Shown: positions 24,879-44,120 of the stretch, piece by piece
How positions within the stretch are numbered: position 1 is the first letter of the stretch
How the letters are laid out: every line of letters starts with the position of its first letter
Virus record (IMG/VR): IMGVR_UViG_3300014039_000028
Location: 14,387 to 78,386 of that record
DNA from: a virus
Taxonomy: Duplodnaviria; Caudoviricetes
DNA: 64,000 bases
Reading direction: 5' to 3' (one strand)
Position numbers and translations under genes: made by a program
The notes under the pieces: generated by a model
Seen by the model: only the letters and a program-made list of their open reading frames with translations
The model's database searches: none
What the model was told of the DNA's origin: nothing

Positions 24879-24922
24879 TTGCTATGTTCCTTTCTGATTC
24901 TATGTAGTTCTTCTGAGGTGTT

Positions 24923-24951
24923 GGGATGGTAGCATAGCTGTCAAGCGCAAA
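24923..24951 (-). promoter_or_regulatory. Compressed promoter-like motif C (TTGACA-N7-TACCAT)
   Basis: TTTGCGCTTGACAgctatgcTACCATCCC, about 48 nt upstream of the operon's first gene. Confidence 0.55.
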
Positions 24952-25029
24952 ATCGGCGTTTTCCTTGGTTTTGATGTAAAAAGCGCGGATTTTTGTATTG
25001 TATCCATAATGCTTTGTCCATCTACGCAG

Positions 25030-25195
25030 CAAAGTTTGTGCAGTTCTCCCCACGTAGTCGGGTGTTTTTCTGTGGCTCTCCTCGACCTTGTGGGGTGATT
25101 CTGTACAGATCCCCCGACGTAGTGACCTAATGTTGTACAGCCCTCCCGGAGGACGTTTTGGGAACGTAGTGACCTGTTTCTGTGCAGTTCCCCTA
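25030..25195. repeat. Cluster of imperfect short repeats (TGTRCAG...CCC and ACGTAGT)
   Basis: TGT(G/A)CAG at about 25037, 25102, 25134, 25181; ACGTAGT at 25052, 25117, 25164. Confidence 0.55.
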
Positions 25196-25336
25196 ACAAG
25201 CTTTTTGCGGTGATATGGTGTAGAAATAAAGCAACTGAACATCCATATTAAATGTTGCGGCGGTGAAGTCCCGCCAGTTGTCGAACTCGCCTTCGTGCAG
25301 CTCGCCCTCACACAGCCATTCGGCATAAATCTTCAT
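25193..25336 (-). CDS. 47-aa hypothetical protein (MKIYAEWLCEGELHEGEFDNWRDF...)
   Basis: Hand-translated, directly downstream of the next gene. Confidence 0.45.
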   Translation of the reverse strand: MKIYAEWLCEGELHEGEFDNWRDFTAATFNMDVQLLYFYTISPQKAC

Positions 25337-25345
25337 TTCCGTGTA

Positions 25346-25768
25346 TTACATCTCCTTTATCAGTTTTATAAAGCCCTGCTGGTTGAGGTTCTTGAGCCAA
25401 ATATGCAGGAACTCGTCAAGGCTCACGCGCAGACGCTGCGAGTACATCATCTGGCCGTCCACGTCCTTGTAAACTTCGTCGTAGCTCCCGGTATAGTCAT
25501 TTCGGAAAAGTACCGGCTCAATGGTTTGTGCGGCTTCGTCGACCGCAAACTCGATCTCAGGATCAGCCATAAGGTCGTCGTTCAGCTCAGAGTAATGCGC
25601 GATGTAATACACGGGACGGCCTTTATAATCCGAGAAGTAAAGGAACTCGGCGGCAAGGCGCGTGTACGGTTCATTCTCCACACTGATATGAAAGTCGTGT
25701 CGAGAAAGCGCCTCCAAGATGGGGCGCAAGTCCTGATAGTTCTGCTTCGCGTGTTTCAGTTCGGTCAT
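25346..25768 (-). CDS. Conserved hypothetical protein (DUF6908-like)
   Basis: IAHYSELNDDLMADPEIEF motif; RBS GGAGGA. Confidence 0.55.
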   Translation of the reverse strand: MTELKHAKQNYQDLRPILEALSRHDFHISVENEPYTRLAAEFLYFSDYKGRPVYYIAHYSELNDDLMADPEIEFAVDEAAQTIEPVLFRNDYTGSYDEVYKDVDGQMMYSQRLRVSLDEFLHIWLKNLNQQGFIKLIKEM

Positions 25769-25789
25769 GTTCGTAAATCCTCCCAAGTA

Positions 25790-26110
25790 TTTTGCGGGCG
25801 CGTGTTCACGCAAAACCCGCAGTTCTTCTGTTGGCCGTGTTCAGGGGCGCGGAAACTTCCCAGTAAAATCCCGCGGGCGTGTTCAGCCCCCCCAAGACTT
25901 CCGCGCTCCCTGTTCACATTCCGGGGCGTGGTCGCTCAACTCTGCCCCGTTCGGTGATCCTGCCGGACACGTCCGGCGGCGGGTGCAATCTGTTTTCTTC
26001 GGGGAGATGCACCAGCTCCCCACGGCCTTACATCAGCACCCCGGCAGGCTGACCGCCGTTTATAGCGATGGGCGCGCGTCCTAATATCTCGCGCCGGGTT
26101 TAATCCTGTT
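25790..26110. other. GC-rich non-coding structured element
   Basis: Stem GGGGCGCGGAA (25844-54) / TTCCGCGCTCCC (25899-910); four TGTTCA copies. Confidence 0.45.
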
Positions 26111-26187
26111 TTCTTGCCCATGAGCGCCCGCCATATAGGCGGCTGGACTTGCACCAGCGGCGGCGGATGCCGTCGGCCTTGCGGGTA

Positions 26188-27075
26188 TTAAGCGGCGATT
26201 ATGGCCGCGCGTATTTGCTCGATGATTTCATATATCTTTGCGCTGCCGGTGCCGCTGTTGCGCTTGTAATAGCGCACAGAGTACCGCGGCGCGCCCTCGA
26301 TAATGGTAACGCTGCATTGCGCAAAGCTGTTGAGGATCCACCCGCGAGTGCGCAAGGGAATTTTCACGCCGTGCGCGTCGGCTATCTCTACCAATAAAGC
26401 GCCGTCTTTTATCAAACCGCCGCGGGTAAAAATCTCCTCGGCCTTCTTTATCTCTTGCCGGTGCTGCTCTTCCTGCTCTGCTCTTTCCTTTGTTTCCTGC
26501 TCTTCACGTTCACGGCGGGCGGCTTCTTCTCTCGCTTCTCCATCGGCGCGCAGTTTTGCGGACAGCTCCGCGCACTTGCCAAGCTCCCCGAGTACAGCCG
26601 CGCCGACGAAGTCGGCGAACGTGCCGCCGTTGTCGCGGGCGTTGATGTAATTACGAACGCGAACGCGCAGACGATCCCGGATATAATCCGCTTGCCGTGC
26701 TGGGTCTGAGCCGTACCGAAGTATTACGGGCTCTTCCAGCTCTCGCAGCCTGTTAACCTCGTCGCCGCTGCTCCTTTGCCAGACTCGCGCGCGTTATTCC
26801 CGTGTGCCGTATAGCTCCACGCAAGCCGGGAAAAAACCTAGAACATCGGTAAATTTATAATCTGTCATCCGCAGCGGCACTAAATAGTTGTTGATCTCGA
26901 CATAAAGAAAATACCTGTCGCGCTCGTTGGCGGGGTATTGGTTTTTCTCTGTACAGGTCCAAAGCTTGTACGACTCCGCGCCGTTGCTGACCTCGCGCAC
27001 AAAATCCGCGCGGCAGTTTTTGCCCTCGCGGTTATACATGCCATTGACAAAAAGCGGCTTTTTTAACGTGCTCAT
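26188..27075 (-). pseudogene. 295-codon gene interrupted by one in-frame TAA at 26794-26796
   Basis: ORFs 26794-27075 and 26188-26415 share a frame; the intervening region is stop-free (...YGTRE*RARVWQR...EREEQETKERAEQEEQ...). Confidence 0.7.
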
Positions 27076-27172
27076 GTGGTAAAACCTCCGTATTTTTTAG
27101 GCTCAAAGCCTGTAAAAACGCCTTGCAATCAAGACGCTTTTACAGACTGCCGGGAAAAGCCCCGGCAAGCTG

Positions 27173-27996
27173 TTAATAGAGATAGTACCAGACAATAAAT
27201 TTTGATTCTTTGCCGTCTGCGCTGCTCCATGGGGTATACCATGCTTTCCGCCTTTGCTTCCGGCGCTGTTCAACAAATTTCTTTGCCTGCTCTTCCGTGT
27301 CGACGAAATGGAATGTTTCTTGATGCCTCATTTCTATATCTCCATTCTTGCAAATTCCCGCATTTCCGCGGCTATATCTTCCGGGGTATTCGCGAATTTC
27401 GCTAACCATTCCGGGAAGTGCTGCGATAAATAGGACTCAAGGTTTTCAAGATTTCCCGGCTTGCCTGCGATTTCCTTTATGGCGGCTACAAAATCCGACG
27501 CCGCTTTTGCTGTCTCATCAGTTGTGTAAACCACTTTGCAGGACTTTCCGCCGGGGCAAATAAATTCTCGATCTTTTCCGGCATGTTCGCAGCGGCTCCC
27601 GCAATTCTTGCAATTGTCATGCTTAACCATTTTGAAACCTCCTCAAATAAAATACATAGTCCCGTCCAGCTCGACGGCGACAGCCTCTTGTTTCAGTTCG
27701 TCCCGCATACGGACGGCAAAATTAACTACATCGTCCAAGTGCTCATCAAGCGCAGACTGCGCAGCATAGGCGAACACGGCGTTGTTGTCTTCGGTAATAA
27801 GCCCGTGCGCCTCGCTCATCCAGTAGCCGCGAACAGGCGTTGACGTTGCCCCGCCGAAGCACTGAGACAGCAGCGTAGCGGCCTCATGCACGTATGCGCT
27901 TGTATCGCCTGCCGTGTTTGCGTCAACGGTTCCGGGAACGTAAACCGTTATTTGGTGGCTGAGGCTGAAAGAGTTTTTCAAGATATTATTATTCAT
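27173..27996 (-). other. Three small hypothetical genes (27173-27331, 27334-27630, 27643-27996)
   Basis: Coupled ORFs downstream of the promoter near 28040. Confidence 0.55.
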
Positions 27997-28035
27997 GTTC
28001 TGACCTCCTGCGCCCGTCTGGGCTTGTCTGACTGT

Positions 28036-28146
28036 ATGTATAATACACTGTTTAACAGTACATTGCAATTCGCAAAATGAACAAATAACGTACTGTTTAA
28101 TAGTGCATATTGTACGGCTTGACAGTACACGAAAAGTTATATATAA
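28036..28146. promoter_or_regulatory. Divergent promoters with TACTGTTWAAYAGTG operators
   Basis: Minus: TTGCAA-tgtactgttaaacagtg-TATTAT; plus: TTGACA-17-TATAAT; extra operator at 28091. Confidence 0.7.
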
Positions 28147-28169
28147 TGAGTGATGAAAGGGGGCTATTT

Positions 28170-28397
28170 ATGGCCGTGAGTGATAGCAGGCGGCGAGCAA
28201 ATAATAAATGGGATGCTGCCAACATGACAACGCTTGGATGTCGAATGAAACGATCTGACGCGGAGGAATTCAAGGCGGCGTGCAAGGACTCCGGAACGAC
28301 CCCGAACGCCGTTTTTAATACTGCCGTCGCCGAATTTATGCAGGATTACGCAGAAGAAAAATTATTGAATGGAGGAAAAAAACATGGGTATGAGTGA
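28170..28397 (+). CDS. RHH-like regulator (SRRRANNKWD type)
   Basis: RRANNKWDAANMTTLGCRMK...TPNAVFNTAVAEF. Confidence 0.65.
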   Translation: MAVSDSRRRANNKWDAANMTTLGCRMKRSDAEEFKAACKDSGTTPNAVFNTAVAEFMQDYAEEKLLNGGKKHGYE

Positions 28398-28858
28398 TGC
28401 GCAATTTAAGGCTTTTTTGCGGGTGGCTCTTAGGGATTTAACGGAAGCCCTGAAAGCCGCCACACCTGAAGAGAAAGATGCTATTATAAAAGCCCTTGCC
28501 GACGACTTCCAGAAGTCGCTGGAGGATTAAACGGAGGTAAAAAACAGTGCCGACTGAGCAGGAAATGAAAGAAGCCCGGAAGGCGATAGCCTACGATCTT
28601 TTACAGATTATCGAGGCACAGCCGGAAAAACAGGCGTACACCGCCGAAGAGGTAAAAAAACTTATTAAACTTTACGTCAGCACGGCGAACCAAGACTAAA
28701 AAGGAGGGTATAACAATATGAATATGTCCGAGAGTGCAAGAATTATAGTAGGCTTGCGCAGTAAAGGTTGGAACGATACCGATATAACAAACTTTATCCT
28801 TTGGGTAGAAACCGGCGAAGAGCAGTACAGACCGGAAAAGAAAGCCGAAGAAAAGTAA
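28384..28858 (+). other. Three micro-ORFs: 28384-28530 (48 aa), 28547-28699 (50 aa), 28718-28858 (46 aa)
   Basis: Hand-translated; each has a GGAGG RBS; all below the ORF-track cutoff. Confidence 0.65.
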
Positions 28859-28926
28859 AAAAGAATGTAAAAAGGCAAGAGAGCAGGCTTGAAAAACTTC
28901 GGTCTGCTCTCTTTTTATATAATTTG

Positions 28927-28991
28927 TACTGTTTAACCGTGCAAATTTGTGCAAATTGCGTCTTGCGCTGTACTGTTAAACAGTGTATAAT
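28927..28991 (+). promoter_or_regulatory. Promoter with the same operator as 28036-28146
   Basis: TTGCGC-tgtactgttaaacagtg-TATAAT; second operator TACTGTTTAACCGTG at 28927. Confidence 0.7.
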
Positions 28992-29050
28992 AACACACGT
29001 AAATAAGAAAAACACATCTGACAGATCAGATATTAAACGGAGGGTTAAAA

Positions 29051-30040
29051 ATGAAGTATTTCGCACAGTGCAAAAACCTTGAGGAACTCAAGAAGGAATT
29101 TAGACGGCTGGCCATGATCCACCATCCCGACAGGGGCGGCGACGTCGAGACCATGAAAGAGATCAATAACGAGTATGACATGATGTTTCCCGTGCTCAAG
29201 GCCAAGACAGCCGCGCAGAGCACCGAAACCGCCCAGAGCACCCGCAGCGAGTTTTACACCGCGAACGGCTGGAAGGGCGAACGGTACGAAGCCGGGCGCA
29301 GTCTCAAGGAAATAGCGCAGCTTGTCCGCGCGTACATTAAGGAATTTTTCCCGGACTACCGTTTCAGCGTCCGCACGGCCTACGCTTCCATGTGTCAGGA
29401 ACTTCACGTTGACATGAAAGAAGCCCCCGCGGAGATCTTCAAGACCTATGAGGAAATGACAGACGATGATATTTCCGAGTGTTGGCGGAAGGCCACCCGC
29501 AACAGTGTATGGACCCTCAACAGCTGGAACAAGGCCGAGGAGAAAGCCGAATTTGAAAGAATTTGGAGCAAGTACGGCGCATTTTACAAGTGCTTGACCG
29601 ACAAGACCCGCGCGACAGTGAAGGCCGTTGACGAGTATGTGAACAGCTTCAATTATGATGATTGCGATAGCATGATCGACTATTTTGACGTTAATTTCTA
29701 TTACTTCGGATGCCTGCAAAGCCCCGGCGCCGTGAAGATCGTTCCCCGCGCTCCAAGAGCCGAGAAGCGCCCCGCCAAGGCCGAGAGCAAAGCCCCAGCA
29801 CCGGCAGACAAGGCCGAGAAGCCCGAACAGATAGCCCCGGCAAAGCTCGCAGCGCTCCGCGTTGAGTTTAATACAGAACATGACGGGATCGAGGTTTATT
29901 TTAACTCCAAGCCCTCACAGGCCACACGTGACGCGCTCAAGGCCGCGGGGTATCGTTGGCATAGCGTTAAAAAATGCTGGTTCGCAAAACGCACCGAGGC
30001 GCATTTACAGGCGCTCAAAAAGATAGAAGACGCAGCATAA
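29051..30040 (+). CDS. J-domain (DnaJ-like) protein fused to an LPD29-like domain
   Basis: LKKEFRRLAMIHHPDRGGD (HPD motif); SFNYDDCDSMIDYFDVNFYY. Confidence 0.75.
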   Translation: MKYFAQCKNLEELKKEFRRLAMIHHPDRGGDVETMKEINNEYDMMFPVLKAKTAAQSTETAQSTRSEFYTANGWKGERYEAGRSLKEIAQLVRAYIKEFFPDYRFSVRTAYASMCQELHVDMKEAPAEIFKTYEEMTDDDISECWRKATRNSVWTLNSWNKAEEKAEFERIWSKYGAFYKCLTDKTRATVKAVDEYVNSFNYDDCDSMIDYFDVNFYYFGCLQSPGAVKIVPRAPRAEKRPAKAESKAPAPADKAEKPEQIAPAKLAALRVEFNTEHDGIEVYFNSKPSQATRDALKAAGYRWHSVKKCWFAKRTEAHLQALKKIEDAA

Positions 30041-30089
30041 AAGCCGGGCATTTGCCCGGCTTATTTTTTGAGAAAATGTAAAGTTATGC

Positions 30090-30118
30090 TTGACAATCAG
30101 TATATACTGATGTAAAAT
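30090..30118 (+). promoter_or_regulatory. Promoter with palindromic operator
   Basis: TTGACA-atcagtatatactgatg-TAAAAT; ATCAGTATATACTGAT is a perfect palindrome. Confidence 0.75.
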
Positions 30119-30159
30119 AGAATCATCCCAAAAGGGAAATCTAAAAAGGAGGTTAGGCA

Positions 30160-30276
30160 GTGGCAAAAAGGCAAAAGAAAGCCCCTGACAAGCTGGAGAT
30201 CGTCCGCGTGGTTTTGGAGATGCTGGCATACATCGCGACCATAGCGGCGGCAGTCTGGCAGATAGTCAAGAGCTAA
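30160..30276 (+). CDS. 38-aa basic-then-hydrophobic membrane peptide (MAKRQKKAPDKLEIVRVVLEMLAYIATIAAAVWQIVKS)
   Basis: Hand-translated; RBS AAGGAGGT, GTG start. Confidence 0.7.
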   Translation: MAKRQKKAPDKLEIVRVVLEMLAYIATIAAAVWQIVKS

Positions 30277-30344
30277 TCCGACAAGGGGCGCGGCGGCGTA
30301 AGCCGCCCGCCCTGCCTGAAGCCATTATAAGCCAATGTAAGAAG

Positions 30345-30503
30345 ATGTGCAAGCGAAAGTTTAGAAACTCGGCGTTATATCTGTTGTTTGCGCTCAACTG
30401 TGTAAATGCGATTAAGCAGGGCGCTAACTGGATCTTTTGGGTCTCCGCGGCGCTTGTCGCAGCTGTCGCAGTCCTTGACATTATGGAGGCCGTGAAGAAA
30501 TGA
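30345..30503 (+). CDS. 52-aa membrane peptide (MCKRKFRNSALYLLFALNCVNAIKQGANWIFWVSAALVAAVAVLDIMEAVKK)
   Basis: Hand-translated; two hydrophobic segments; overlaps the next start. Confidence 0.55.
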   Translation: MCKRKFRNSALYLLFALNCVNAIKQGANWIFWVSAALVAAVAVLDIMEAVKK

Positions 30504-30697
30504 GCGAACGACCGCAAGACCGATACAACAAGGCCAAGACAACAACGGTATTACTCCGGCTCAACAAGTCCACAGACACGGATGTTATTAACGCATTAGA
30601 ACAGCAGCCGAATAAATCAGGCTATATTAAATCATTGATCAGAGCAGACATTGAAAGGAGACAGAAAAATGAAGAAAATAATCAGCGATTGTTTTAA
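30500..30697 (+). CDS. RHH regulator/antitoxin-like protein
   Basis: RYNKAKTTTVLLRLNKSTDTDVINALEQQPNKSGYIKSLIRADI. Confidence 0.7.
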   Translation: MSERPQDRYNKAKTTTVLLRLNKSTDTDVINALEQQPNKSGYIKSLIRADIERRQKNEENNQRLF

Positions 30698-30911
30698 TCT
30701 TGGCGGCGAACGCCTTTATAACGGTGAGCAGCTTTTACAGACCGTCCGGGAATACGGCGATTATATCGACCTTGACAGCGGCGTAACGATAAAGGCAACC
30801 GGGGACGGCAGATATTATAACGATGCGGACGATCTCGACAGATACGCGGCGGTCTTTGATTGGGACGAAGACGCCGAGCAAGGCGAATTAATCGGATTCG
30901 TGCAGCTGTGA
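30669..30911 (+). CDS. Small acidic hypothetical protein
   Basis: MKKIISDCF..., RBS AAAGGAG. Confidence 0.5.
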   Translation: MKKIISDCFNLGGERLYNGEQLLQTVREYGDYIDLDSGVTIKATGDGRYYNDADDLDRYAAVFDWDEDAEQGELIGFVQL

Positions 30912-30919
30912 AACAACGC

Positions 30920-32240
30920 AATATAAAGCCCCTGAGACGGTCAGCAATGGCCGTCTTTTTTATCGCCCTTATGCAGATGTCGACCGGAGACACGATCCGC
31001 GCCCACGCCCTTTATTATATATTACTTAGATTATATATTATATATCTAAGATGTTATATATACTGTGTGTATAGGTATATATTAATAACCTATGTAATAT
31101 TAGAATATGCCGCCGTTCCCGTTCAGGACACCGAGCACCAGGAGCGCCCGCGCATGCGACCACCAAAGCCCGAACCAGACGCAAGGACGCGCCACAGCAG
31201 CCCGTAACAAGTGCCATATATCGCGCCCTATTCTTTATATGCCTTAGCCCCCCCAAGCCCAGCACCACACACGGCGGAGCTTTACACAGCCGCACAGCTC
31301 CCCCCCACCCTTTTATATATAAATATCTAAGATATATATTATATATATTTAAGATTTATAATATATGTGTGTATGTAATGTGTATATATCTCTATAGGTA
31401 TATATAAAATAAGCGCTACTAAGAAGAGAGAGCAAACACAAACAGAGAGAACATCACGCACAGCCGGAGCAAAGAGCAGAGCAATACCACAAAGAAAAGA
31501 GAGAACACCGCCAAGAGAAGCAAGGACACAGCAACACCCAACACAACACGCCGCTGACTGTCGAACCATGTTGATACAGTTCTTCAGACGGGGGAGTGTC
31601 GCCGATTCGCACTTGTTCACGATTTTGGGAGAAATCGCGAGATTTTGCGAGTTTTCAAAAGCTCCACAAAACCGCCGTCAGCGCAGCCGCGGCCGCTTAA
31701 CTCTAGTCATTTGTGTAATAATGACTAGAGATAGTGCCCCGCCCCCACTTCCAAAACCGCGCGGGGGCTTGATTTTTCAAGGTTTTCCGGTGGCAGTCCC
31801 ATTCTCTCACTCATTCACTTCCTCCCTCCAACCATCCCTCCTTTCCATCCCCTCCCCCCCTACTTAAAAATCGAATTTAAGATTTCAAAAGGTTCTCCGG
31901 GCGAAGTTGCTATTTATAGGTCAAATCCCCCTATTCAATTATAATCTGGTTGAAATGCAGATAATCATCCGCTCTGTTTTTGCGTTATTCGTGCCTGACG
32001 CGCTCTCTGGCGCATTTTGCACGTCTCGGCGGTGTAGTTTTATCCCTGAATATTAAAATCGATTTTAAGGTCGTTCTCGCGCGTTTTAAGACGCATTGTT
32101 TTTGAGTGACTTTCAGCCCACTCTCGGATAATAACCGGGTCACACTCAACAACGCTTCGTCTGTCGGTCGGGTATGGTTGAGATAGTGACCGGCGCAGAA
32201 CGCAAAAAAGAGGCCACCTCCGTAGAGATGACCTCTTGAT
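30920..32240. other. 1.3 kb non-coding convergence region with strongly skewed low-complexity blocks
   Basis: TA-rich blocks near 31010-31105 and 31310-31410, A/G-rich 31410-31555, C-rich 31735-31860. Confidence 0.7.
31701..31730. repeat. 11-8-11 inverted repeat resembling a tyrosine-recombinase site
   Basis: CTCTAGTCATT-tgtgtaat-AATGACTAGAG. Confidence 0.55.
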
Positions 32241-32243
32241 ATT

Positions 32244-33739: not shown

Positions 33740-33762
33740 TTTGTTCTGTTCCTCCATAAATT

Positions 33763-36700
33763 TCAGTCGCTTATCGCGAAGTTGATATTATTGGTCAAGC
33801 TCACCTCAAGCCATTTCAACTCTTCAGCCGTCAGTATGCGATTGGTCGCGCGCAAGATAACCGCTGTCGTCCGATTCGGACAAGCTACACATTCGCATCG
33901 GTGCAAACTGCTCGACTCGTTCACCCTGAACGGGCAGTTGCTGGCGTAGCACTCCATTACTCGATCTCCTGCAACCAAAATTCGCGACGGCAATCCGGAC
34001 AATATTTGTTAATAGTCATGCAGCTTCCATCTTCGCCGCGATGGCGCGGTACAAGCTCATTTGGGCAAATATCCAACACGCCATCGGCTCTTACTCGAGC
34101 GTCAGGCCACTGTTTCAGAAATTCGCTCTGCCGAGTCTTGACAGGGTTCCGTTTAGACCATTGTTCAACTATTCCAACCATTTCCTCAGGACGGTTATAG
34201 AGAAGTTGTATACACGATATGCCAACGCTGAGGCTCTCTCCGAGGGGACAATAACGACATGTCGTTCTAAATGCTTGGCACATGCGATTTCTCTCTTTTG
34301 CAAATTCAACTGCGTCCATCATTTACCCTCCATTTCTCGCCGCAGCGCTGCTCCCATCTTTACCATCTCTTCCAGCGTTGGTGCGTGTTCGCACACGAAA
34401 CTGCCACTGAGGGCACAACTCCAACACATAATTCCTCCTGTAAGCGCCCAGCACCGATTGCACAACACTCGGCAATCTTCCTTGAGGTTGGTGTTTTCTT
34501 CTTCCAGAGAGCCCACCTTTTCCCGATACTGCTTTTTCAGCTTCGACAGCTCCGCCTTGAGCCTTTTATTTTCCTCGGTCGCGTCCGAGGACATCTTGTT
34601 GCGAAATTCATTTAAGTCCATTTGTTACTCTCCTTTCCGCATGCGAGCAAAAATCTTTTGGGTATGGATTTTGTAGCCCGTCTTCATGCACGCAAAATCC
34701 ATTGCCAGTGAGCGCATACATGCTGAAGAAATTACATTCTTCACACCTTACCACTTTTATGACATCCGCTGCTGGGACATCGTTTATGGCCTTTGCAATT
34801 CGGCCAGTGCTTGTCTGCCCAAGCCACACCTCTTTTACTGCTGCTTGCGTAGCCGCTTCACGTTCTATGTACTCAGTCATTATTTTTTCTCCATTCTGAG
34901 CATCCGCCATTGTTCTTCCATACGCAGCGGTCGCATTTGCCGTAGCACTTTTTATGTTCAGCCATTGTTATTGCCTCTCTGCTGAACGGACTATTTGGAA
35001 GTGGCAGCAGATGCGATTTACAGTGTACTCAACACCATATCGGAAATCCATGTCGGTTCCGGCTACATCGTCAGTGTGATAGTCCGCATAAATCTCTTCA
35101 AGAATTTTCCGCAGTTTCTTCTTTGTGATAAGTCCGAACATTTTTACCTCCTATTCGTCGCTCTTTTTCATTCCAAGCGAGCAAAAATCATTACACCTTG
35201 TTGTGACGGTTCCGAATCGTTCACACTTGCCGTAGTCTCGGTTGACCTGTGTATGTCTTTGCCAAAATTGGCAGTCTTTGCACCTAACCACTGGAACTGC
35301 GTCGACGGTAGGTGCAGAAAACAAGTCATCAACTTTCAGAAACCACTCATTTTTAGGGAAACATCCAAATTCAGTCTGAAAGCTGTATTTCTTCTTTTTG
35401 TTGAGTCTATCCGCGTCAATCAGCCGCATTGTCATCGTCTCCCCTTCTCTGCAATGCGGCAACATCTTTATCCCAGCAGTCTTTCGGGAATCTATCGTTC
35501 ATCAGGTGTATCATCCCTTTCTCTCGGAAACGCTATGATTGCACCTTCGTACAGTTTGCTCCTGTCAACTTCGCAACTGTCAAAGAGTATTCCCCGTGGC
35601 CTTCCACATGCAATAGCCACGCTGGCGGCTATCACGTCGTCGGGAATATCAAGTGTTATTTTCATCTCTGCTCCCCCTTACCACCCGTAAAAGAGCACGG
35701 TTTGGGTCTCCCAGTCTATCGCCTTATACAGCCTGACCAACTCGAAAATCTGGTGTTCGTACTGCCATGAGCCGCATATGAATTCATGCGTTTCATCAAG
35801 GTCAATAGCGCCGAGCCTCTCCCACCATTTAAGTTTTTCGGTGATAAAGTCGCGTATTTTATCTATGCTCTTGATGTCATCCCGCTCTATGGAAAAACCT
35901 CCCGGAAGAAGTTGCTTTCCGCCGTCCACAAGTAAGTCTTTATACGCCTCTATGATTTTGCGCTTGTATATCTCGATAGCTTCAAGCACACCGGGCTTAC
36001 CAACGACATACGGATCATAGTCCGAAACGTCCGCCTGAACTTCTTTGCCTGTAAACAGCGGTTCGCCTTTGCTATAAATCCGGTCTGCCGTATCGTCCCA
36101 ATACAGTTTCCCAAATTCAAAGATTTCCTTTTTGTCAAGAAACTTGTCGTCGTTAAACGAGAACCATCCGTTCCCAGCTTCTACACCCTTTGATTTTGCG
36201 TAGTCGCAAAGCTCATTCAAGGTCATGTTCTTGACCTCTTCGCACTTGCTTTTATCAACAAGATAAAAATAATGTCTATATCCCATTTTCACTTTCCTTT
36301 CTGAACATCACTACCCGAACCACATCATCGATCTGCACTTCCGTGTCCTCAAAGGGGAACTGGCCGCAATGCGGGCAGACAATAGTGTCGTGCACTTCGT
36401 CGAGGCCGAGTTCGCCGCCAACCCAAAGAGGTGTGGTATCAACTATCACAGCGCCGTTATCCATTTCCGTAAAGGAATGTTTTGTGATCGTGTTTCCACC
36501 GTCAAAATTCTCCATCACAAGCTCTATTGCAGTGAGCTCACGACCGCACTTTTCGCACTTCATTTTCTCTGCCCTCCCATCTGCCCCCACAAATCCTTCA
36601 ACGCAAGTTCCGTAAAGAATTTGTCCGAATACGCCGAACATCTGTTTTCGGGGTCGACCCACTGTGAGAAGCGTGTGCACCTGATCTTATCGTCTATTTT

Positions 36701-38895
36701 TCTTTTGGGATTCGCGTACTCGCAGTATTGGCACTGCACTTTATACGTCATCGCGTTCGCACATCCAGTCATCATTTGCTACACCCGACCTTTTGCCCTT
36801 TTGGCGGATTGGGCAGCGGCATCCAATGAGAGACGAATTTGTTGAGTGCCCAGCCTTTTGAGATTTGAATTTCACAATCCGAACCTGCCATATCCGGGAG
36901 ATATGCCAGAACACGCTCGTCCTCCTCTGGCAGTTTGTCCTCGACTTTTGTCCACTTGGACGCGGGGGCGTCAGCATCCTCCTCAAGCCTCTGCATCCAC
37001 TCGCACTCAGATGGCTCGCAAGGTTGGTCCGAGTGAAACTCATTGCACATATTGCAGATGATCGTCTTGGCTGTTTCGATTTTCGTATGTCCGTTCATTC
37101 TTTTCCCTCCATAAGTTACAACTGAGTCTGTTGTTGGAGGCGGCGGAATACTCGACGCATCGCTCCATCCAGTCGGTTGATATCCCCCGCTTCGGCGTTC
37201 GATGTCTGGCCGCTGAACACCACATTTTCTTCTATAAATGCAGTCACTCGTCATCTTCTACCTCCGCTATCCACATACTTATTTCTTTCTCTGCCGCGTC
37301 TAATGCCTCGTCCAGTGTCCGCCCTTTCCATTCATAATGCCGCGCGGGGCCGAGCACGTAGCAATGAAGACTGATTACATACCAGTTGGGAGCGTCCTCT
37401 CCGCTTCCCGCCAGTTCAAAGTAGTCCGGGAACTCAAACAGCAGCTCCATGTGCCCCTCATACGTCTTACAACAGGGGTCTATTTCGAGCGCTTTCTTTA
37501 TTCCAGCCATAACTTTCCGACGCAGCGCAAGGAATCTCTTATACGATTTTTCCACTTAGATTCTCACCTCACCGCTTAATCAATTTCAGCCACAAGGCAT
37601 CCGCGATTGAGAACAGCGCCCATATTCCGAAAAATTCGGTTTTGGGCTCTACGTCGTTCATGTCATACCAAATTGCCACCAAGAAAAACAAAAGACTCAT
37701 CCGCAGTCCCTCTTCACTCATAAAGCCCAAGACTCACAAACAGTCTCTTGGCTTCCTCGTCATACGCCTTATAATCCGGGTACTTGTCCAAAATGTCAGC
37801 GTACTTACACTTCTTCTGTCCCCCACATGCCTTGCGGTCTTTGCAATATACGCAGCCGTATTTCTTCTGCGAGTCCGGATTAACACCTACATACCCCTCC
37901 GAGCTGCCCAAGCCCTCGCGCGAGCCTTTTCGCTCTCTGGTACATCCGCAGTTTCTGACTCGTCCCGTGCGGATATCATATCCACGGCGGACAAATGTTT
38001 TCCCGCATATCCGACAGCGGCAGTTGAAATACGCACCCAAAGACCCACCGGAGCGCTTTTCGTTGTAACTCAGGACTTCTATGTCGTGGAATGTCTGCCC
38101 TGATATGTCGATGATTTTCATGTTGTCTCCTCTATTGTCTCAAGCAAAGCGATCAGCCCGAAAAACGACCTCGGATTTATCCCAGTCTTTTCCTTTGCCG
38201 CTGTCAAATGAAATTCCACTGTGGAGTTGTTCATGTTCAGCGCTCTGGCCGTAGCTGTGGCGTTCATATTGTTTTCGGCATAAGTGCAAATTACGCGCTT
38301 GCACTTCTCGGTTAATGGCCGTGGGCATTTGTCCATTCGGCTCCCCTCCTCTCTGCATAATGCGAATATTTATTCATCCGGTAAAAATTCTGCGGGGCAT
38401 ATCATATTTGTCTCTATCAGGAACGCCAATTTGAACTGTGGTACGGTAAAAATGCCCTCTTCCACAAGAACTTCTACACCGTGCTTCAGCGCTTCTCCAT
38501 CAATCACGGTTCCTTGCGGATAGCCAATAAACTGCGTGACAAAACGCTTTACCGCTTCAAATTGTTCGCTCGAAGCCCACACGATAGTCCCTCACTTCCG
38601 ACATGTCTACAACTCTCAACCTTGCTTGGTAATGGAAATCACCAGAACCGTCCTGCCAGAATCTCCACTCTATGAAACGGCTAAGCTCCTTGGATGTAAC
38701 GAGCTTTTCTACGAGATCCTTCTCGCCGAACTCCTTTATAATATCTTCGCCGAAGGTTTCCATCTCTTCGCGTGAATATATCCTTGTAGCTACGAAAGTT
38801 TCAGGCCGCAAATTGATCCGAACAACTTTAGGCGGCGGCAGTTGTTCTGTATACCCACCCAGTTTGCGTATGATCCAGCGCTTAATTTTGTTCAT
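33763..38895 (-). other. Run of about 15 small hypothetical genes, many Cys-rich; includes AP2/HNH-adjacent-like 37714-38121 and PucR/CdaR-HTH-like 38118-38336
   Basis: Overlapping stop/start ORFs in the track; functions not assignable. Confidence 0.55.
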
Positions 38896-39595
38896 CGTTC
38901 ATTCTCCCCTCCATCACAAAAAGACTTTGCTGTGCCGTATATTCGTTGAAGCGCTCTTCTTGAAGCTTGAAATACGTTGGGTCTATTTCGCAGCCCACGA
39001 AATCAAGTCCTGCGTCATAGGCCGCGATTCGGCTGCTGCCGCTTCCGAGATGCGTGTCAAGGATCCGGTCTCCGGGTTTCGCGTAGTTTTTGAAAATCCA
39101 CCGATAGAGTGCGACTGCCTTTTGCGTAGGATGAATCTGTTTCTCGTTCAGCTTTTTGTTCCCCTGCTGAATCGTGCCCTCTTCAACGCTCTTCCCTTGC
39201 AGCATTCCATTCCACATGAAGCGGAATATCCTGACGCTGGTAAAGAGGTCTGTCGCGGCCAGCTCACAGTCGGAAAAACTGCTTGAGGAATTGCACTTGT
39301 CCCACACGATTCGCCCCGGCGCGAAGCGATAGTCAAAGTAATTGCATCCCCACACTATGTAATGCTTGGCAACGCGCCGAAGTTCCTCAAAATATTCCGC
39401 GTTTGGAATGTCCCACTGTGGGGAGATGGGATAATCCCTGTGAACGCCGATTTTGCTGACACGGCTCCCGTAATAGCCGCGCCTTTCCGGTCCTGAGAAA
39501 TATGGCGGGTCAACTACTGCGAGGTCGAACGCCTTGTCAGGAACTGTGCGCATGTACTCCATGCAGTCGCAGTTGACTACTATGCTTTCGCTCAT
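38882..39595 (-). CDS. DNA amino-methyltransferase (N6-A/N4-C, beta class)
   Basis: VVDPPY (motif IV), IHPTQK, ILDTHLGSGS (motif I). Confidence 0.9.
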   Translation of the reverse strand: MSESIVVNCDCMEYMRTVPDKAFDLAVVDPPYFSGPERRGYYGSRVSKIGVHRDYPISPQWDIPNAEYFEELRRVAKHYIVWGCNYFDYRFAPGRIVWDKCNSSSSFSDCELAATDLFTSVRIFRFMWNGMLQGKSVEEGTIQQGNKKLNEKQIHPTQKAVALYRWIFKNYAKPGDRILDTHLGSGSSRIAAYDAGLDFVGCEIDPTYFKLQEERFNEYTAQQSLFVMEGRMNDEQN

Positions 39596-39607
39596 TTCAT
39601 CACTCCC

Positions 39608-40138
39608 TTACACTTCATCTCCCCATGCGTCCCAGCCGGGGAATCGTTCTCTCGCAAATATCTCTATGCGCGGCTCATAGCTCACCAGTTCTATCATGCG
39701 GCGCATTTCTTCGGGCTTGCGGCTGTGCACCGTTTTGGGTGCATAGAATCCCGTTTTTCCCTGACAGCGTTTACCTTCGGGAGAAACTTTGTAAGGCAAG
39801 CGCTTTTTCGTCGTGGCAAATATGCAATGTTCAGTCAGTCCTCTGTAATACTGTCCCAAGCCCTGCTGGTTTTTCATCCACGTTATCGTTGTCACATACT
39901 CGAATCCCCACGCCTTCACGCATTCAATGGCGGCGGGTAGATAATTATTGGTAGCCCAGCAGTACAGATGGCACCCGTCAGGGGCTGCAAGTTGCATGAC
40001 CGGGAGCGCCTTGATCTCGGCAACAGACATCAAACTGTAGTGCTTGTCCGCTCCGCGCTTGATTTTGCCGCCTCCCCGCTCTGGCCACGGCGGGTCTATG
40101 TAGATTGTGCGGTATTTGTCACTTGGAAAGTCGTTCAT
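39608..40138 (-). CDS. MT-A70 family adenine methyltransferase
   Basis: YRTIYIDPPW, HYSLMS, HSRKPEE, RIEIFARERFPGWDAWGDE. Confidence 0.9.
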   Translation of the reverse strand: MNDFPSDKYRTIYIDPPWPERGGGKIKRGADKHYSLMSVAEIKALPVMQLAAPDGCHLYCWATNNYLPAAIECVKAWGFEYVTTITWMKNQQGLGQYYRGLTEHCIFATTKKRLPYKVSPEGKRCQGKTGFYAPKTVHSRKPEEMRRMIELVSYEPRIEIFARERFPGWDAWGDEV

Positions 40139-40256
40139 ACGCCCTCCTTGATTTTGAAAAACTGACAGCCGCGGCCTTTATCGCAGTCGTTGGCGCAGAA
40201 CCGGCATGGATTCGCATCGAGCACCAACAGTTTGACGATTCGGCACAGCCGTTCTT

Positions 40257-40861
40257 TCATGTTGAACTGTCCTCCTCAGTTTTAGGGTACAAATCTTCCA
40301 AATCCCCCGCGAGACGGTGATACTCGCTGTTTTCCTCGATTTCAGCCTTGAGACGGTTCGCCAAATCCTCAATTCGCGTCTGTTGTTTGAGCAGTGTAGT
40401 CACGCACTCATCGAGATATTGCGCAGCGGCAAGATAGCCGCACTTGCCTATCGCTCTTCCATCCTTGCCATCTCTAAGAGCTTCCTCTTTAAGGTCAGCA
40501 AGGAACCTCACCAGAGTTGCCATACGATTTGGTGCATAATTACTCACTTTTCATTTCCCTCCTCATAATTGTCTTTCAAGTATCTGTTTCGTCTGCAACA
40601 GGAGCATTTCTGGTGCTTTTGCTTATTCTTGCAAGTACCGCAACCGCCGATAGTAATACTGTCTGCGAGAAGCGGATTGTTCGCTATGAAATTCGCTTCC
40701 AGTAGCTGGATTGTGTTCAGAAGAGCGCTGTCCATATACGGACTGTCATTCGTCATTCGGTTAAGGCGGCACTTACCTAAAAAATCCAGCAAGTGGTCAA
40801 AATTGATATACCTGACTGCGTTGCCGTATAACTTCACGCGCTCCTTCTCTTTCCTTGTCAT
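40257..40861 (-). other. Two small hypothetical genes (40257-40547, 40544-40861)
   Basis: Coupled ORFs. Confidence 0.5.
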
Positions 40862-43125
40862 TAGCGCACCACGGCTCCTCTCAAAAATTCATCTAAGTCA
40901 CCGGATATACCGGCATCCTCGTCTCCGAAATGTCTCTTTACGACAGCAATCGGGAACTGCTCAATTTCGCTTGCCCAACGGCAGTTTTCCGCGCCGTGGA
41001 TTTCAGCCCAGCACAGCGGAAACCCGCCTATACCGTCGAACAGTGAACCAAGCGTCGCGTCCGCCGGTAGATACTCGCTTATGCGGCGCAGCAGCCATTT
41101 CCAGAACGGGAGAGCGATGCTGTTGCCAAGGGCTTTATATTTAGGCGCATCAGATTCTTTATGTACGCGTCCTTTCTCATCTGTCCACTCACCTATGTCA
41201 ACCCATCCGTCCGGGAATCCCTGAAGTCTGGTACATTCCAGCGGGGTCAGTCTACGCACTGCGCCTGACTGTCGGCATATATTGTTGAGATTGAGACTTG
41301 AGCCACCAGATTCTTTAGCTTGAAGCGTACCGTTCACATCGCCGTTCTCCGTAAAATTTCTGCAATCTACAGCAGCTGAAAGAACATAAGTTGTTGAATC
41401 CTCGCGAAACGAGTCCTTTCCTGAGGCGCGTAAGGTGTGTGCTACGAGCATATCGTTATAAGCGTCCTGCCCGTTGTAGCTTCCAGCGTGTGCTCCCGGT
41501 GAGAGTGTTCCGGTTACCTGTTGATATGTAAGTGGGACTTGATTTCCGCCAGTTCCCATCCTTGCTTGTAGGCTCGGTACAACCTCGCCGCACTCTCTTA
41601 TGACATCATTCGCATGGCTCATATCCAATATTGCAGGAACTTGATTCGTGCCGCTTGAAACCGCTGATAATGTAGGTGAGGTCTCTTCTGCATAACCTAT
41701 ACTGCCCGCTTTCGCACCTTGTCCAGACTTAAACGCTGCCACTATATGCTTGTCTGCCACGGTGATGGTCGGCGCAGGATCACCATCCTTGCCGATTCCA
41801 AGACCGTTCCCGCTACCGTCGTTCTTGCGGGTATCTCCTCCGCCCTTGAATCGCGTCGCTTTGTCGTTTATTGGGATGACTACCGATTCCGCGCCGTGCT
41901 GTTGGGTGCTTGCGACTGCTGGATAAGTGCCTGCTTCAACTGTTCCGGCAGGTCTTTCCCTCTGCTTTCCGCTCTCCGGAGTATCCCCTGACAGGCTGCA
42001 CGGCTCAAATAATATTTCGTGGGCGGTGCTTCCTCCAAAATCTGCGACAACCGAGATTCTACTGTTGGATAGTTGAACGTTCCAAGTCCGTAGAATGTCA
42101 TGCCCGACCAGTTGAGCAAGGCTCTTTCCATTTGCGGATTCCTCATTCATATACCCCCTTATCACGGTTAAAACAGATTTTGCCCAGCCGAAGAAGTTCG
42201 GCGCATCGGGATTCGTCTCCATCGCACAGTTTAGATAAGCTCCAGTGACATTTAGCGTGCGCAGCAGGGTTTGGAAACAAGTGCAGATTCGACGGATCGT
42301 TATTTCGCTTGTTGCAGTCGATGTGATGAACTCGTTCTGAAGAAGTGAGTGCGCGTCCAAGGTGTTTCTCAACCACGCTCCTATGGATATATTTTCTTCT
42401 GCAATTTTCGATGACGTACTCGTACCCTCTGTCATCTGCGCGAACAAGTCCATCTGGATTTCGCCAACTCTTGAACCCAAGTTTTCTTGCTCTTTTGGAT
42501 AATTCGCTTCCATCTCGTCCAAGAAGCGTTGCCACCTCTTTATGGTCTCTTCCTTTTGAAGCGAGAATAATTTTATCCTCTTCTGGAGTCCATCTTCGGA
42601 TAGCCACTTTGCGCGGCACTCCGATTTTTTCGGCGCGATGCCTAATCGCGCACACGCTTCGACCCAGTCTATCAGCAATATCTCTGTGAGGCATTGAAGC
42701 ATAATGCTGTCTGATATAATTGTCCTCTTGCTGAGTAAATAGTGGATGTTTGCCCATACTATCCCAATTCTCCTTCTTCTTTGCGGAACGCCGCAATACT
42801 GCGCATCGTGAATCTGCGGGTCTGGAATAAAGCCAATCTCAGTCATCATATCCAAGGCAGCTACAAAATCCTCTCCATTATTGCTACTCAACATTCCGGG
42901 CACATTCTCAAACACCACAAATTTAGGGTACTTTCCTCTGGTCGATGAATACATCTCGCTGATTACCCTAACAGCTTCAATGTATAGACCAGAACGATTC
43001 CCTGCTAGTCCCATACGCCTCCCAGCGATACTCAAATCCTGACAAGGCGAACCAAAGGTGATGACATCTACCGGCTCTATTTCAGCGCCGTTTATCTTCG
43101 TTATATCTCCTAAATGTCTCACCAA
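40861..43125 (-). CDS. C5-cytosine DNA methyltransferase alpha subunit, circularly permuted, with a 237-codon insertion
   Basis: FGSPCQDLS (IV), FENVPG (VI), VPQRRRR (VIII), RRLTPLEC, YKALGNS (X), then LFDGIGGF (I) and WASEIE (II) at the C-terminus. Confidence 0.9.
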   Translation of the reverse strand: MVRHLGDITKINGAEIEPVDVITFGSPCQDLSIAGRRMGLAGNRSGLYIEAVRVISEMYSSTRGKYPKFVVFENVPGMLSSNNGEDFVAALDMMTEIGFIPDPQIHDAQYCGVPQRRRRIGIVWANIHYLLSKRTIISDSIMLQCLTEILLIDWVEACARLGIAPKKSECRAKWLSEDGLQKRIKLFSLQKEETIKRWQRFLDEMEANYPKEQENLGSRVGEIQMDLFAQMTEGTSTSSKIAEENISIGAWLRNTLDAHSLLQNEFITSTATSEITIRRICTCFQTLLRTLNVTGAYLNCAMETNPDAPNFFGWAKSVLTVIRGYMNEESANGKSLAQLVGHDILRTWNVQLSNSRISVVADFGGSTAHEILFEPCSLSGDTPESGKQRERPAGTVEAGTYPAVASTQQHGAESVVIPINDKATRFKGGGDTRKNDGSGNGLGIGKDGDPAPTITVADKHIVAAFKSGQGAKAGSIGYAEETSPTLSAVSSGTNQVPAILDMSHANDVIRECGEVVPSLQARMGTGGNQVPLTYQQVTGTLSPGAHAGSYNGQDAYNDMLVAHTLRASGKDSFREDSTTYVLSAAVDCRNFTENGDVNGTLQAKESGGSSLNLNNICRQSGAVRRLTPLECTRLQGFPDGWVDIGEWTDEKGRVHKESDAPKYKALGNSIALPFWKWLLRRISEYLPADATLGSLFDGIGGFPLCWAEIHGAENCRWASEIEQFPIAVVKRHFGDEDAGISGDLDEFLRGAVVR
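41880..42146 (-). CDS. Nested EcoHK31I-type methyltransferase beta subunit (alternative frame)
   Basis: SRLSQILE...KYYLSRAACQGILRRAESRGKDLP (motif IX); ATG overlaps the HNH stop. Confidence 0.75.
   Translation of the reverse strand: MRNPQMERALLNWSGMTFYGLGTFNYPTVESRLSQILEEAPPTKYYLSRAACQGILRRAESRGKDLPEQLKQALIQQSQAPNSTARNR
42143..42757 (-). CDS. Nested HNH endonuclease with two N-terminal Myb/SANT-like repeats (alternative frame)
   Basis: FTQQED / WTPEED repeats; VHHIDCNKRNNDPSNL...H..CH; RBS AAGGAG. Confidence 0.85.
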   Translation of the reverse strand: MGKHPLFTQQEDNYIRQHYASMPHRDIADRLGRSVCAIRHRAEKIGVPRKVAIRRWTPEEDKIILASKGRDHKEVATLLGRDGSELSKRARKLGFKSWRNPDGLVRADDRGYEYVIENCRRKYIHRSVVEKHLGRALTSSERVHHIDCNKRNNDPSNLHLFPNPAAHAKCHWSLSKLCDGDESRCAELLRLGKICFNRDKGVYE

Positions 43126-43173
43126 AAACCACCTCCTTCATGCCAGCGCGAGTGCGTCTGGCTCTTTGGTGCT

Positions 43174-43202
43174 GGGATGGTAGCACCCGTGTCAAGCGCA
43201 AA
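43174..43202 (-). promoter_or_regulatory. Compressed promoter-like motif A (TTGACA-N7-TACCAT)
   Basis: TTTGCGCTTGACAcgggtgcTACCATCCC upstream of the MTase operon. Confidence 0.55.
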
Positions 43203-43360
43203 CGAACCAGATGGCGCAGAACTGCGACGTTGTTTTGTGCAAGTATCACAAAATTTCAAGCTTAATGAACGTAGAAAAGCAGCCCTTTCAATTTGAAAAG
43301 GCTGTTTTTTTCGTATACCTATACAAATTTTGATGTTTTGGCGATTCCCAAGCGCAAAAA

Positions 43361-43386
43361 TGCGCTTGACACGCCGTGTATCATCC
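43361..43386 (+). promoter_or_regulatory. Compressed promoter-like motif B (TTGACA-N7-TATCAT)
   Basis: TGCGCTTGACAcgccgtgTATCATCC upstream of the sigma-factor operon. Confidence 0.55.
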
Positions 43387-43410
43387 TTGCACCGAAAAAG
43401 AAAGAAGCGG

Positions 43411-44120
43411 ATGCCTATGCAGGAGGCCGAGCTTAAAGCCGCGGCAGTCGGCATACTCACATATCTGGCGATTGCAAATGAGGAGACCACGCGGCACAGC
43501 GGAGAGGCGGCGGAAATTATGGAGTTTGACGCGCCATACAATCCATCCGCGTTCAAACTGGCGATGCAGTATCTCGCGCGGATGGACATGGAAGAAACGG
43601 AGGTGGAGTTATGGAAGCGGTAATAATACTGCTTATCTGTACGGTTATCCCTGTAACAGTTGGTTGCGCGATGCACATCAAATTTGCGCACGAACGGTGG
43701 GTTTCTTATTTAGAGCAGAAATCAAGTTACAAACATATAACGGTCTCTCCTGAAATTTTCAAAACAATGCTTTACACCCTCTCCTATGAAATGAGCGCTT
43801 TGCCTTACGGCATAATGTGGCATAGACCTACATCACGACGCCATGGGAGCGAGCCTATCTTGGTGTACGGTAGAAATCGGCTCGAACAAGAGCAGATGAA
43901 CCTTGCTCTGACTGTATACCTCGATAAGCAAGCAAAAGCGCGGGAGAGACGCAAAGAACTCGCCAACGATGCAACTACTGATTCGTTAAAGCAAGTCCAA
44001 GACGACCTCCAACGTATCATCGACGGCAATCTCCGCGCCGCGCAGGAGGCCGCGCGGAAAAATCAAGAGATTATGGAGCGTCTATCAGTAACAACCGCTA
44101 CACACGGAGGCGCACCATGA
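43411..44120 (+). other. Two hypothetical genes (43411-43623; 43611-44120 with N-terminal TM)
   Basis: First genes after motif B. Confidence 0.5.

Follow-up and report, generated by a model that had tools for sequence, protein, structure and literature searches.

A Promoter-Like Layout With TTGACA Placed 7 bp From a -10 Hexamer Recurs in Unrelated Phages

Introduction

The rule that 17 bp separate the -35 and -10 hexamers underlies nearly all bacterial promoter prediction, and a locus in which the -35 word TTGACA lies at a much shorter, fixed distance from a -10-like hexamer raises the question of what reads it. Here we analyze such a locus in a temperate, siphovirus-like phage of gut origin with a genome of 78 kb. 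The window, by which we mean the whole stretch of DNA analyzed (64,000 nt), comprises bases 14387-78386 of the 78,386-bp IMG/VR virus record IMGVR_UViG_3300014039_000028, a record rated complete by CheckV. A preliminary description, made from the letters of this stretch, had pointed out three operon-leading TTGACA-N7-TAYCATCC motifs, here called sites A, B, and C, and had proposed that they form a phage-specific promoter class read by the phage's own sigma factor, possibly in a positive feedback loop. We found that the -35 word recurs at a second sharp distance, 7 bp from an extended -10, in two unrelated phage families and as a peak in public DNA. Because the same layout is present in unrelated phages and in bacterial DNA, the host polymerase, and not the phage sigma factor, is most likely the reader. 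The explanation that we favor, and to which we give an even chance, is that these are extended -10 promoters of the host sigma-A in which TTGACA, one helical turn inside the normal -35 position, serves as a substitute for the -35 element.

Three Copies of a 33-bp Block

The three motifs were confirmed as exact TTGACA-N7-TAYCAT matches (Table 1), and each belongs to a unit longer than first reported, as TGCGC precedes and CC-NN-RCACC follows every one of them to give a block of 33 bp. GCGCTTGACA-N7-TAYCATCC-NN-RCACC has exactly three copies in the complete 78,386-bp genome. When the whole genome was scanned for the 23-nt core, GCGCTTGACA-N7-TAYCAT, with up to 2 mismatches, only sites A, B, and C were returned; the reversed control gave 0 matches, and the chance expectation, estimated from the information content of the pattern, is ~1e-4 or less. 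A chance origin of the sites is ruled out by three exact matches of 23-33 nt where none was expected, together with the empty reversed control. The looser TTGACA-N7-TAYCAT pattern, at 2 mismatches, was found 13 times compared to 7.3 expected, which alone is not significant.

All three blocks lie in non-coding gaps and are oriented toward genes, each of which has a ribosome binding site (RBS). In the preliminary description each motif pointed into a first gene 25-55 nt away; the orientation holds, and we give the distance as 26-45 nt from the predicted +1 to the start codon. Site A lies within a 314-bp gap inside a run of minus-strand genes and is thus placed as an internal promoter rather than at a strand switch. 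Sites B and C face away from each other with 158 bp between them, in agreement with the back-to-back arrangement described before. The operon-leading placement was borne out as well, the first genes being an antirepressor (site A) and a C5 methyltransferase (site B), with the operon that contains the sigma factor gene behind site C. Outside the 33-bp block, the flanks of the three sites are unrelated.

By this anatomy the three blocks are very probably promoters. Sites A and B have a TG at -15/-14 followed by TAnnnT (TGcTACCAT), the extended -10 arrangement, so that the two sites previously credited with a TGn do have one; at site C the TG lies 1 bp off this position, directly against the hexamer, and is missing in some relatives. 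The canonical arrangement, a -35 and a -10 separated by 17 ± 1 bp, was not seen, the spacer being 7 bp at all sites and in all relatives. Neither the hexamers 16-18 bp upstream of TAYCAT (GATTTT, TCGTTT, and AAAAAT) nor those 17 bp after TTGACA (ACACCT, GCACCA, and GCACCG) are promoter-like. The possibility that a canonical promoter is hidden at these sites was rejected, as a consensus scan found none at A, B, or C.

An operator had been named as an alternative. This was not supported for an operator of the CI/Cro type, as the block is asymmetric, without a dyad, and no copy of it is present at the switch region (51.7-51.9 kb), whose own promoters are canonical. A palindrome at site C, AAGCGCA-N4-TGCGCTT, is not retained in relatives.

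Two other features were observed near the blocks. A conserved hairpin with T-runs on both sides, located between sites B and C, probably insulates the two promoters from each other. A loosely shared element, GATAC-N2-3-TACAAA(A), is found 37-46 bp upstream of each TTGACA box, and relatives retain it well at B and C.

Conservation of the 7-bp Spacer in Related Phages

We scanned viral contigs for TGCGCTTGACA-N{0,30}-TAYCATCC and obtained 63 matches, 50 of them with a spacer of exactly 7 nt (N7). Homologous A, B, and C sites are present in about a dozen gut phages of 44-79 kb. In relatives fetched via the sigma protein, down to 60% identity, the B-C control region is nearly unchanged and is retained even where the neighboring genes differ, and N7 is invariant. 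Conservation of the spacing in homologous loci, which the preliminary description had asked to be checked, was therefore found throughout.

The conserved and variable positions are informative about the type of promoter. At site A, four spacer variants occur in relatives (GCTATGC, TGGGTGT, CGGGTGC, and GCCATGC), and at both A and B it is the first four spacer bases that vary, with the TG(C/T) beside the hexamer being fixed. A fixed TG(C/T) after a variable spacer start is the signature of an extended -10, with TG at -15/-14. Placing TAYCAT at -12 to -7 puts the conserved C-A of RCACC at -1/+1, a position suggestive of a transcription start site. Conservation extends from the box to approximately +3, and in one relative (L203), where the first gene behind B is a different methylase, homology ends ~9 nt past the predicted +1. 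The limit of conservation near +3 and this mosaic joint ~9 nt after +1 correspond to the extent of a polymerase footprint. As a separate observation, site A in most relatives also has a TTGACA ~30 bp upstream of the box.

The GCGC before TTGACA is kept at all three sites and in the relatives and is not found in the general N7 class described below. This lends weight to a different explanation, in which host sigma-A reads the -10 and the GCGCTTGACA box is the site of a phage regulator, either an activator that, like MotA of T4 or Lpa of P1, replaces -35 recognition or a repressor of the core promoter, which would switch the three accessory operons jointly. Site C, having neither a properly placed TG nor a -35, should need such help, and operons with antirepressors, methylases, and a sigma gene are plausible targets for joint timing. 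The phage also has several helix-turn-helix (HTH) proteins and many small genes of unknown function, and the late promoters of phage P1 likewise pair a -10 with an element centered near -22. However, the asymmetric box is not a dyad of the kind bound by most phage repressors and activators; the same layout is found in a 14-kb phage without a recognizable regulator and is common in unrelated contigs; and no protein is common to the two phage families considered here. We regard a phage regulator as a serious rival for this particular phage, albeit one that is on the whole rather unlikely.

The Same Layout in an Unrelated Phage Family

The same viral-contig scan also matched a family of siphoviruses of 14-15 kb from lake and other environmental metagenomes (L018, L031, and L212-L291). 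Their genes, all on one strand, encode a transglycosylase, an HNH protein, TerL, a portal protein, a protease-capsid protein, a tape measure protein, and a CHAP lysin, and their TerL is ~28% identical to actinophage terminases. Further relatives were fetched by TerL homology alone, so that the choice of motif could not bias the result. TTGAC(A/T)-N7-TAC(G/C)(A/C)T was present in every member with an upstream flank, amounting to 12 sequence variants with TerL 73-100% identical, and was located in the non-coding gap that precedes this unidirectional gene set, the only recognizable promoter region of these genomes. The sequence of the spacer varies, and its length is always 7.

Three members have an extra TTGACA at 18 bp, and others have TTGCAA or TTGCGC there. 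A G at -14 is found in those without a -35 box and is absent from the three that have TTGACA at 18 bp. Such compensation between the G at -14 and the -35 box is the usual trade-off of primary-sigma promoters.

Searches of the 14-15 kb family with Pfam and PHROGs recognized no sigma or HTH protein, and tblastn revealed no protein common to this family and the 78-kb phage, so that no shared reader was found. A 14-15 kb phage must fire its N7 promoter with the host polymerase alone, and the presence of the layout in a family that lacks a recognizable sigma factor indicates that a phage sigma is not needed to read N7 promoters. Some minor features of this family are worth recording. A cluster of DnaA boxes (CTGTGGATAAC and TTGTCCACA) stands before the promoter and a conserved 5' hairpin after it, and Rfam detected no known RNA element in the family. 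Fixed genome ends at that point are suggested by the many contigs that start 36 bp ahead of TerL.

Close-Set TTGACA in Viral, Metagenomic, and Clostridial DNA

We assessed whether the layout extends beyond the two families by scanning contigs for CTTGACA-N-TGnTATAAT at total spacers of 3-15, including the TGn, and counting deduplicated matches; all figures from these scans are samples. Among the matches listed, N7 accounted for 32 of 119 in viral contigs, with 2-13 at other spacings (binomial P 3e-10), for 23 of 101 in viral contigs when TATACT was used as the -10 (P 2e-6), and for 29 of 118 in metagenome contigs, where N8 accounted for 19 (P 2e-8). With only non-coding context considered, N7 had 36 of the matches listed compared to a mean of 5.4 at other spacings. 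The sites also tend to point into genes: an RBS and the start of an open reading frame (ORF) lay within 200 nt downstream of 38/70 N7 sites, at a median of 41 nt, vs. 12/70 in the opposite direction. In 201 Clostridia genomes, TTGACA-N4-TGnTATAAT (that is, N7) had 52 matches vs. 13 for the reversed control, and N6 had 32 vs. 5. The idea of a phage-specific class stands, then, insofar as the blocks are promoter-like and have a fixed 7-bp spacer, and fails on specificity, as the layout recurs in unrelated phages, in other contigs, and in Clostridia. Canonical N17 promoters remain ~20-25 times commoner than N7, as estimated from the overlap of two scans.

Several trivial origins of this peak were considered. 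In 99 canonical N17 promoters there was no TTGACA-like preference at -25 to -20, ruling out a spacer bias of ordinary promoters as the cause. The chromosomal promoter word of a single host was ruled out by a scan of 185,579 species genomes for the exact 19-mer with a variable gap, which gave no N7 excess (6/120, in coding-like context); only the two phage families contain the full word. Nor is it a rule that TTGACA belongs, as the -35, to a second promoter lying 10 bp downstream: roughly a quarter of the listed viral N7-scan matches, judged by eye, have a TAnnnT 16-18 bp after TTGACA.

In the general N7 set, no upstream promoter is conserved; a weak T at -34 is all that was seen. This bears on the idea that the block is a sigma-dependent pause or antitermination loading site in an early transcribed region, as in the lambda PR' paused complex. 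There, sigma regions 2 and 4 can bind close -10-like and -35-like elements in a TTGACT-N1-AACGAT arrangement, which is itself transcribed from a normal promoter upstream and involves Q; to our knowledge, this is the only known case of one sigma binding -35 and -10-like words at very short spacing. The likeness lies in the close spacing of the two words, and the difference in a spacing of 1 bp with an upstream promoter there as opposed to 7 bp with none seen here. None of the three blocks has a promoter-like -10 at 10-25 bp upstream, and their upstream flanks differ from each other. Spacer-type contacts do affect sigma-dependent pausing in the paper on the Z-element (PMC3173786), a spacer element discussed below. 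Overall, we consider a pause site highly improbable.

In some contigs (L348 and L331), several N7 promoters stand ahead of successive small genes. The stretch L348:200-1110 holds at least 4 GNTTGACA-N4-TGGTATAAT promoters in 1 kb, each before a small gene, and from the sequence the 7-bp layout appears to be the standard promoter of the small-gene cluster in this phage, for which no relative was found among isolated phages. In viral contigs L349 and L356, a palindrome, TTGTCAA-N3-5-TTGACA(A), has the close-set TTGACA as its right half; the box may therefore double, in some phages, as part of an operator-like dyad.

The Phage Sigma Factor

The 172-aa protein encoded behind site C is, judging by its domain matches, a genuine sigma factor, similar to those of extracytoplasmic function (ECF). 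Its Pfam/NCBIfam matches are to regions 2 and 4 only; region 3 has none, and the structure closest to its region 2 is 3mzy, a sigma-H structure. That this sigma reads the motif was the first proposal made for the locus, and two versions can be envisaged: TTGACA and TAYCAT are recognized at 7 bp, or TTGACA and RCACC are recognized ~17-18 bp apart, with a feedback loop resulting in either case. The sigma gene lies in the site C operon, every relative with the sigma also has B and C, and RCACC is conserved 17-18 bp after TTGACA, all of which is consistent with such a role.

Both versions meet structural difficulties. In the holoenzyme, regions 2 and 4 of sigma sit ~17 bp apart on the core polymerase, so no member of the sigma-70 family should read boxes that are 7 bp apart; regions 2 and 4 cannot span such a spacer. 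The second version, resembling the boxes 16-18 bp apart of ECF or sigma-H-like promoters, would be TTGACA-N17-RCACC, and it gives no role to the invariant TAYCATCC and the conserved TG. The fixed TG requires sigma region 3, which is not recognizable in the phage sigma, making this sigma an unlikely reader and pointing instead to a sigma that has region 3. Moreover, no promoter other than site C is visible for the sigma gene; were that site strictly dependent on the sigma, nothing could switch it on, and the positive feedback loop could never start.

Nor do motif and sigma covary. The layout is conserved in phages without the sigma, in unrelated contigs, and in Clostridia genomes, and a distant homologue in another phage (32% identity, L199) has no such motif nearby. 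Within the sigma family, the promoters stay constant while the sigma falls to 60% identity. Records with site A and without the sigma are fragments (53-77% complete), and co-occurrence within the family is uninformative because its members are all close kin. We therefore think it improbable that the phage sigma reads the motif; it is probably a product of this promoter class and not its reader. A separate late-promoter motif for the sigma was sought by a bipartite word count, which gave only coding coincidences (CTTGA-N9-CAAGC) and an AT-rich repeat region.

The host polymerase appears to be of the usual kind. Canonical promoters in the window include TTGACA-17-TATAAT at 28119, with 12/12 matches, TTGACA-17-TAAAAT at 30090, and TTGACT-17-TATAAT at the lysogeny switch (51790), and perfect or near-perfect 17-bp promoters in the phage imply an ordinary host polymerase with a normal primary sigma.

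A Proposed Reading and Its Relation to Known Promoters

According to the host sigma-A reading that we favor, RNA polymerase with the primary sigma-A of the host would recognize TAYCAT as the -10, with the TG of an extended -10 (at -15/-14) as an aid at sites A and B, and transcription would start ~7 nt downstream of the hexamer, at the A of the conserved RCACC. GCGC-TTGACA would then occupy -29 to -20, with TTGACA centered at -22.5, on the same face of the DNA as a normal -35. TTGACA would act as a fixed-distance anchor that replaces the missing -35 at 17 bp, with either the polymerase or an accessory protein as the possible partner of the box. The alternative from the preliminary description that fits best is the extended -10 promoter with a box beside it.

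The blocks resemble the described extended -10 class (TGnTATAAT, and the Gram-positive '-16 TRTG') in having TAnnnT, TG at -15/-14, no -35 at 17 bp, and a predicted start ~7 nt downstream. Site A, which reads TATGcTACCAT, fits TRTG, and the mutual compensation of G at -14 and a normal -35 in the 14-15 kb family is a further likeness. They differ in that the described class has no invariant TTGACA 4 bp upstream of the TG, and in that site C has no TG.

A second comparison is with the Z-element, a sequence at -22 to -18 in the spacer that acts via the beta-prime zipper and, given a good -10, can replace the -35 with Thermus, E. coli, and B. subtilis polymerase (PMC3173786). It is AACCT/AACAT, a loose consensus located 4 bp from the hexamer, was first seen in T7 A1 and A2, and led Yuzenkova et al. 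(2011) to predict -10/Z and -10/Z/-35 promoter classes (PMC3173786). Like the Z-element, the box described here would be a -35 substitute near -21, and in the 14-15 kb family it occurs both with and without a -35. Unlike it, the box is TTGACA, which is the -35 consensus itself, and lies 7 bp from the hexamer with an overlap of 2 nt. We do not class the box as a Z-element because of this 2-base overlap and the different sequence. In the literature we found no described short-spacer TTGACA promoter class beyond the Z-element paper (PMC3173786).

A number of points weigh against a host sigma-A reading with TTGACA as the -35 substitute. Both the start site and the reader are deduced from sequence. 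TTGACA is the word recognized by sigma region 4, but in the established holoenzyme geometry a box at 7 bp from the -10 is out of reach for that region. The published Z-element (AACCT) is unlike the box in sequence and shares only 2 nt with it in position. At site C the TG is not properly placed, and a bare -10 should be weak, which favors a helper protein; the GCGC, conserved in this phage and not in the general class, may mark an extra phage-specific contact. The enrichment of N6 in Clostridia makes the chromosomal peak blunter than that of the contig scans, and the counts from the latter are samples from the matches listed, not totals.

A broader proposal is that TTGACA exactly 7 bp from the -10 is a general, so far undescribed basal element read by the polymerase without additional factors. 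Contact could be made via the beta-prime zipper and the zinc-binding region, or by region 4 in a non-standard position, and the element would be a third polymerase anchor beside the -35 box and the TG, used for whole gene sets in phages of Gram-positive hosts and occasionally in bacteria. We put this forward tentatively, as a possibility well short of even.

Systems with a displaced box and a dedicated factor provide further points of reference. The late promoters of P1 have a 9-bp inverted repeat centered at about -22 together with a -10 and need phage Lpa and host SspA. They share with the present blocks a -10, an element near -22, the lack of a -35, and the presence of several copies heading co-regulated operons; however, the box here, centered at -22.5 to -24.5, has no dyad, and the operons are of accessory or early type, not late. 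No Lpa homologue was seen, no search aimed at Lpa having been made. The middle promoters of T4 have a MotA box (TGCTTtA) at -30, 11-13 bp from the -10, and need MotA and sigma appropriation by AsiA. Here the likeness is a host sigma -10 with a displaced box at a fixed distance that replaces -35 recognition, and the difference is that two phage proteins are needed in T4, whereas the present layout also occurs where no phage factor can be available.

If the host polymerase reads the box, these promoters would provide the '-10/Z' class, predicted in 2011 and never defined, with a sequence and with a natural set of test cases, and would allow better promoter calling in phage genomes. If instead a factor reads it, that factor must be widespread.

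Genes Behind the Sites and Genome Setting

The positions of the blocks and of the main genes discussed are collected in Table 1.

Table 1. Promoter blocks, associated elements, and genes, with positions given in the coordinates of the window.
Feature	Position	Strand	Details
Site A, TTGACA-N7-TAYCAT match	24926-24944	-	exact
Site A block	24917..24949	-	TGCGC 24949-24945, TTGACA 24944-24939, spacer GCTATGC 24938-24932
Site A second half	24917..24931	-	TACCAT 24931-24926, then CC-CA-ACACC to 24917
Site A predicted +1	24919	-	A of RCACC
Site B, TTGACA-N7-TAYCAT match	43177-43195	-	exact
Site B block	43168..43200	-	TGCGC 43200-43196, TTGACA 43195-43190, spacer CGGGTGC
Site B second half	43168..43182	-	TACCAT 43182-43177, then CC-CA-GCACC to 43168
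Site B predicted +1	43170	-	A of RCACC
Site C, TTGACA-N7-TAYCAT match	43366-43384	+	exact
Site C block	43361..43393	+	(T/C)GCGC with TGCGC at 43361-43365, TTGACA 43366-43371, spacer CGCCGTG
Site C second half	43379..43393	+	TATCAT 43379-43384, then CC-TT-GCACC to 43393
Site C predicted +1	43391	+	A of RCACC
Hairpin with T-runs on both sides	43280..43304		between sites B and C; conserved
GATAC-N2-3-TACAAA(A) copy	43236-43252	-	
GATAC-N2-3-TACAAA(A) copy	43304-43320	+	
GATAC-N2-3-TACAAA(A) copy	24989-25003	-	
Bro-N/KilAC antirepressor, 268 aa	24072..24878	-	first gene behind A; Pfam PF03374 1.2e-22, PF02498
C5 DNA methyltransferase, 754 aa	40861..43125	-	first gene behind B; Pfam PF00145 8.8e-42
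Operon behind site C	43417..47565	+	gene calls and Pfam
Phage sigma factor, 172 aa	44117..44635	+	TIGR02937 1.8e-15, PF04542 7.7e-09
Tape-measure-sized ORF, 1534 aa	2576-7180		
Integrase	47928-49214	-	
HTH repressor-type gene	49237-49935	-	
HTH repressor-type gene	51163-51729	-	

Beyond the antirepressor behind site A, the same strand carries more Bro-N genes, an SSB gene, and small genes, and the C5 methyltransferase behind site B is followed by MT-A70, an N6/N4 methylase, and small genes. The operon behind site C encodes, in order, a 68-aa and a 169-aa protein, the sigma factor, a 141-aa protein, Rha, a GT2 glycosyltransferase, a 61-aa protein, and Bro-N. No family match was obtained for the 68-aa and 169-aa genes (window 43417-44120). 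In relatives they always stand ahead of the sigma gene, the 169-aa protein being 188-206 aa long there, and their products are candidate partners or regulators of the sigma.

From approximately 51.9 kb, a rightward early operon encodes an antirepressor, a recombination nuclease, a replisome organizer, DnaB, and dUTPase. The integrase listed in Table 1 is one of two integrase-family genes in the window, the other lying at 13772-14728 (-). Antirepressor-type genes (Bro-N, KilAC, or Rha) number at least 7 and are scattered across the genome, and a toxin-antitoxin-type gene of the SocA_Panacea family is located near 18.4-18.9 kb. By the bipartite word count, the spot richest in repeats is a non-coding stretch at 31016-31406, densely filled with TATATA-type units, which could serve as an origin or as a large operator.

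The record begins and ends with ~100 bp that repeat each other and is thus probably circular or terminally redundant. Within this terminal repeat there is a TTGCCA-17-TATCAT (window 63933-63961; genome bases 1-130), which is followed by a GC-rich hairpin with a T-run and then by the first gene of the presumed structural block. This order of putative promoter, terminator, and gene is reminiscent of late operons controlled by antitermination.

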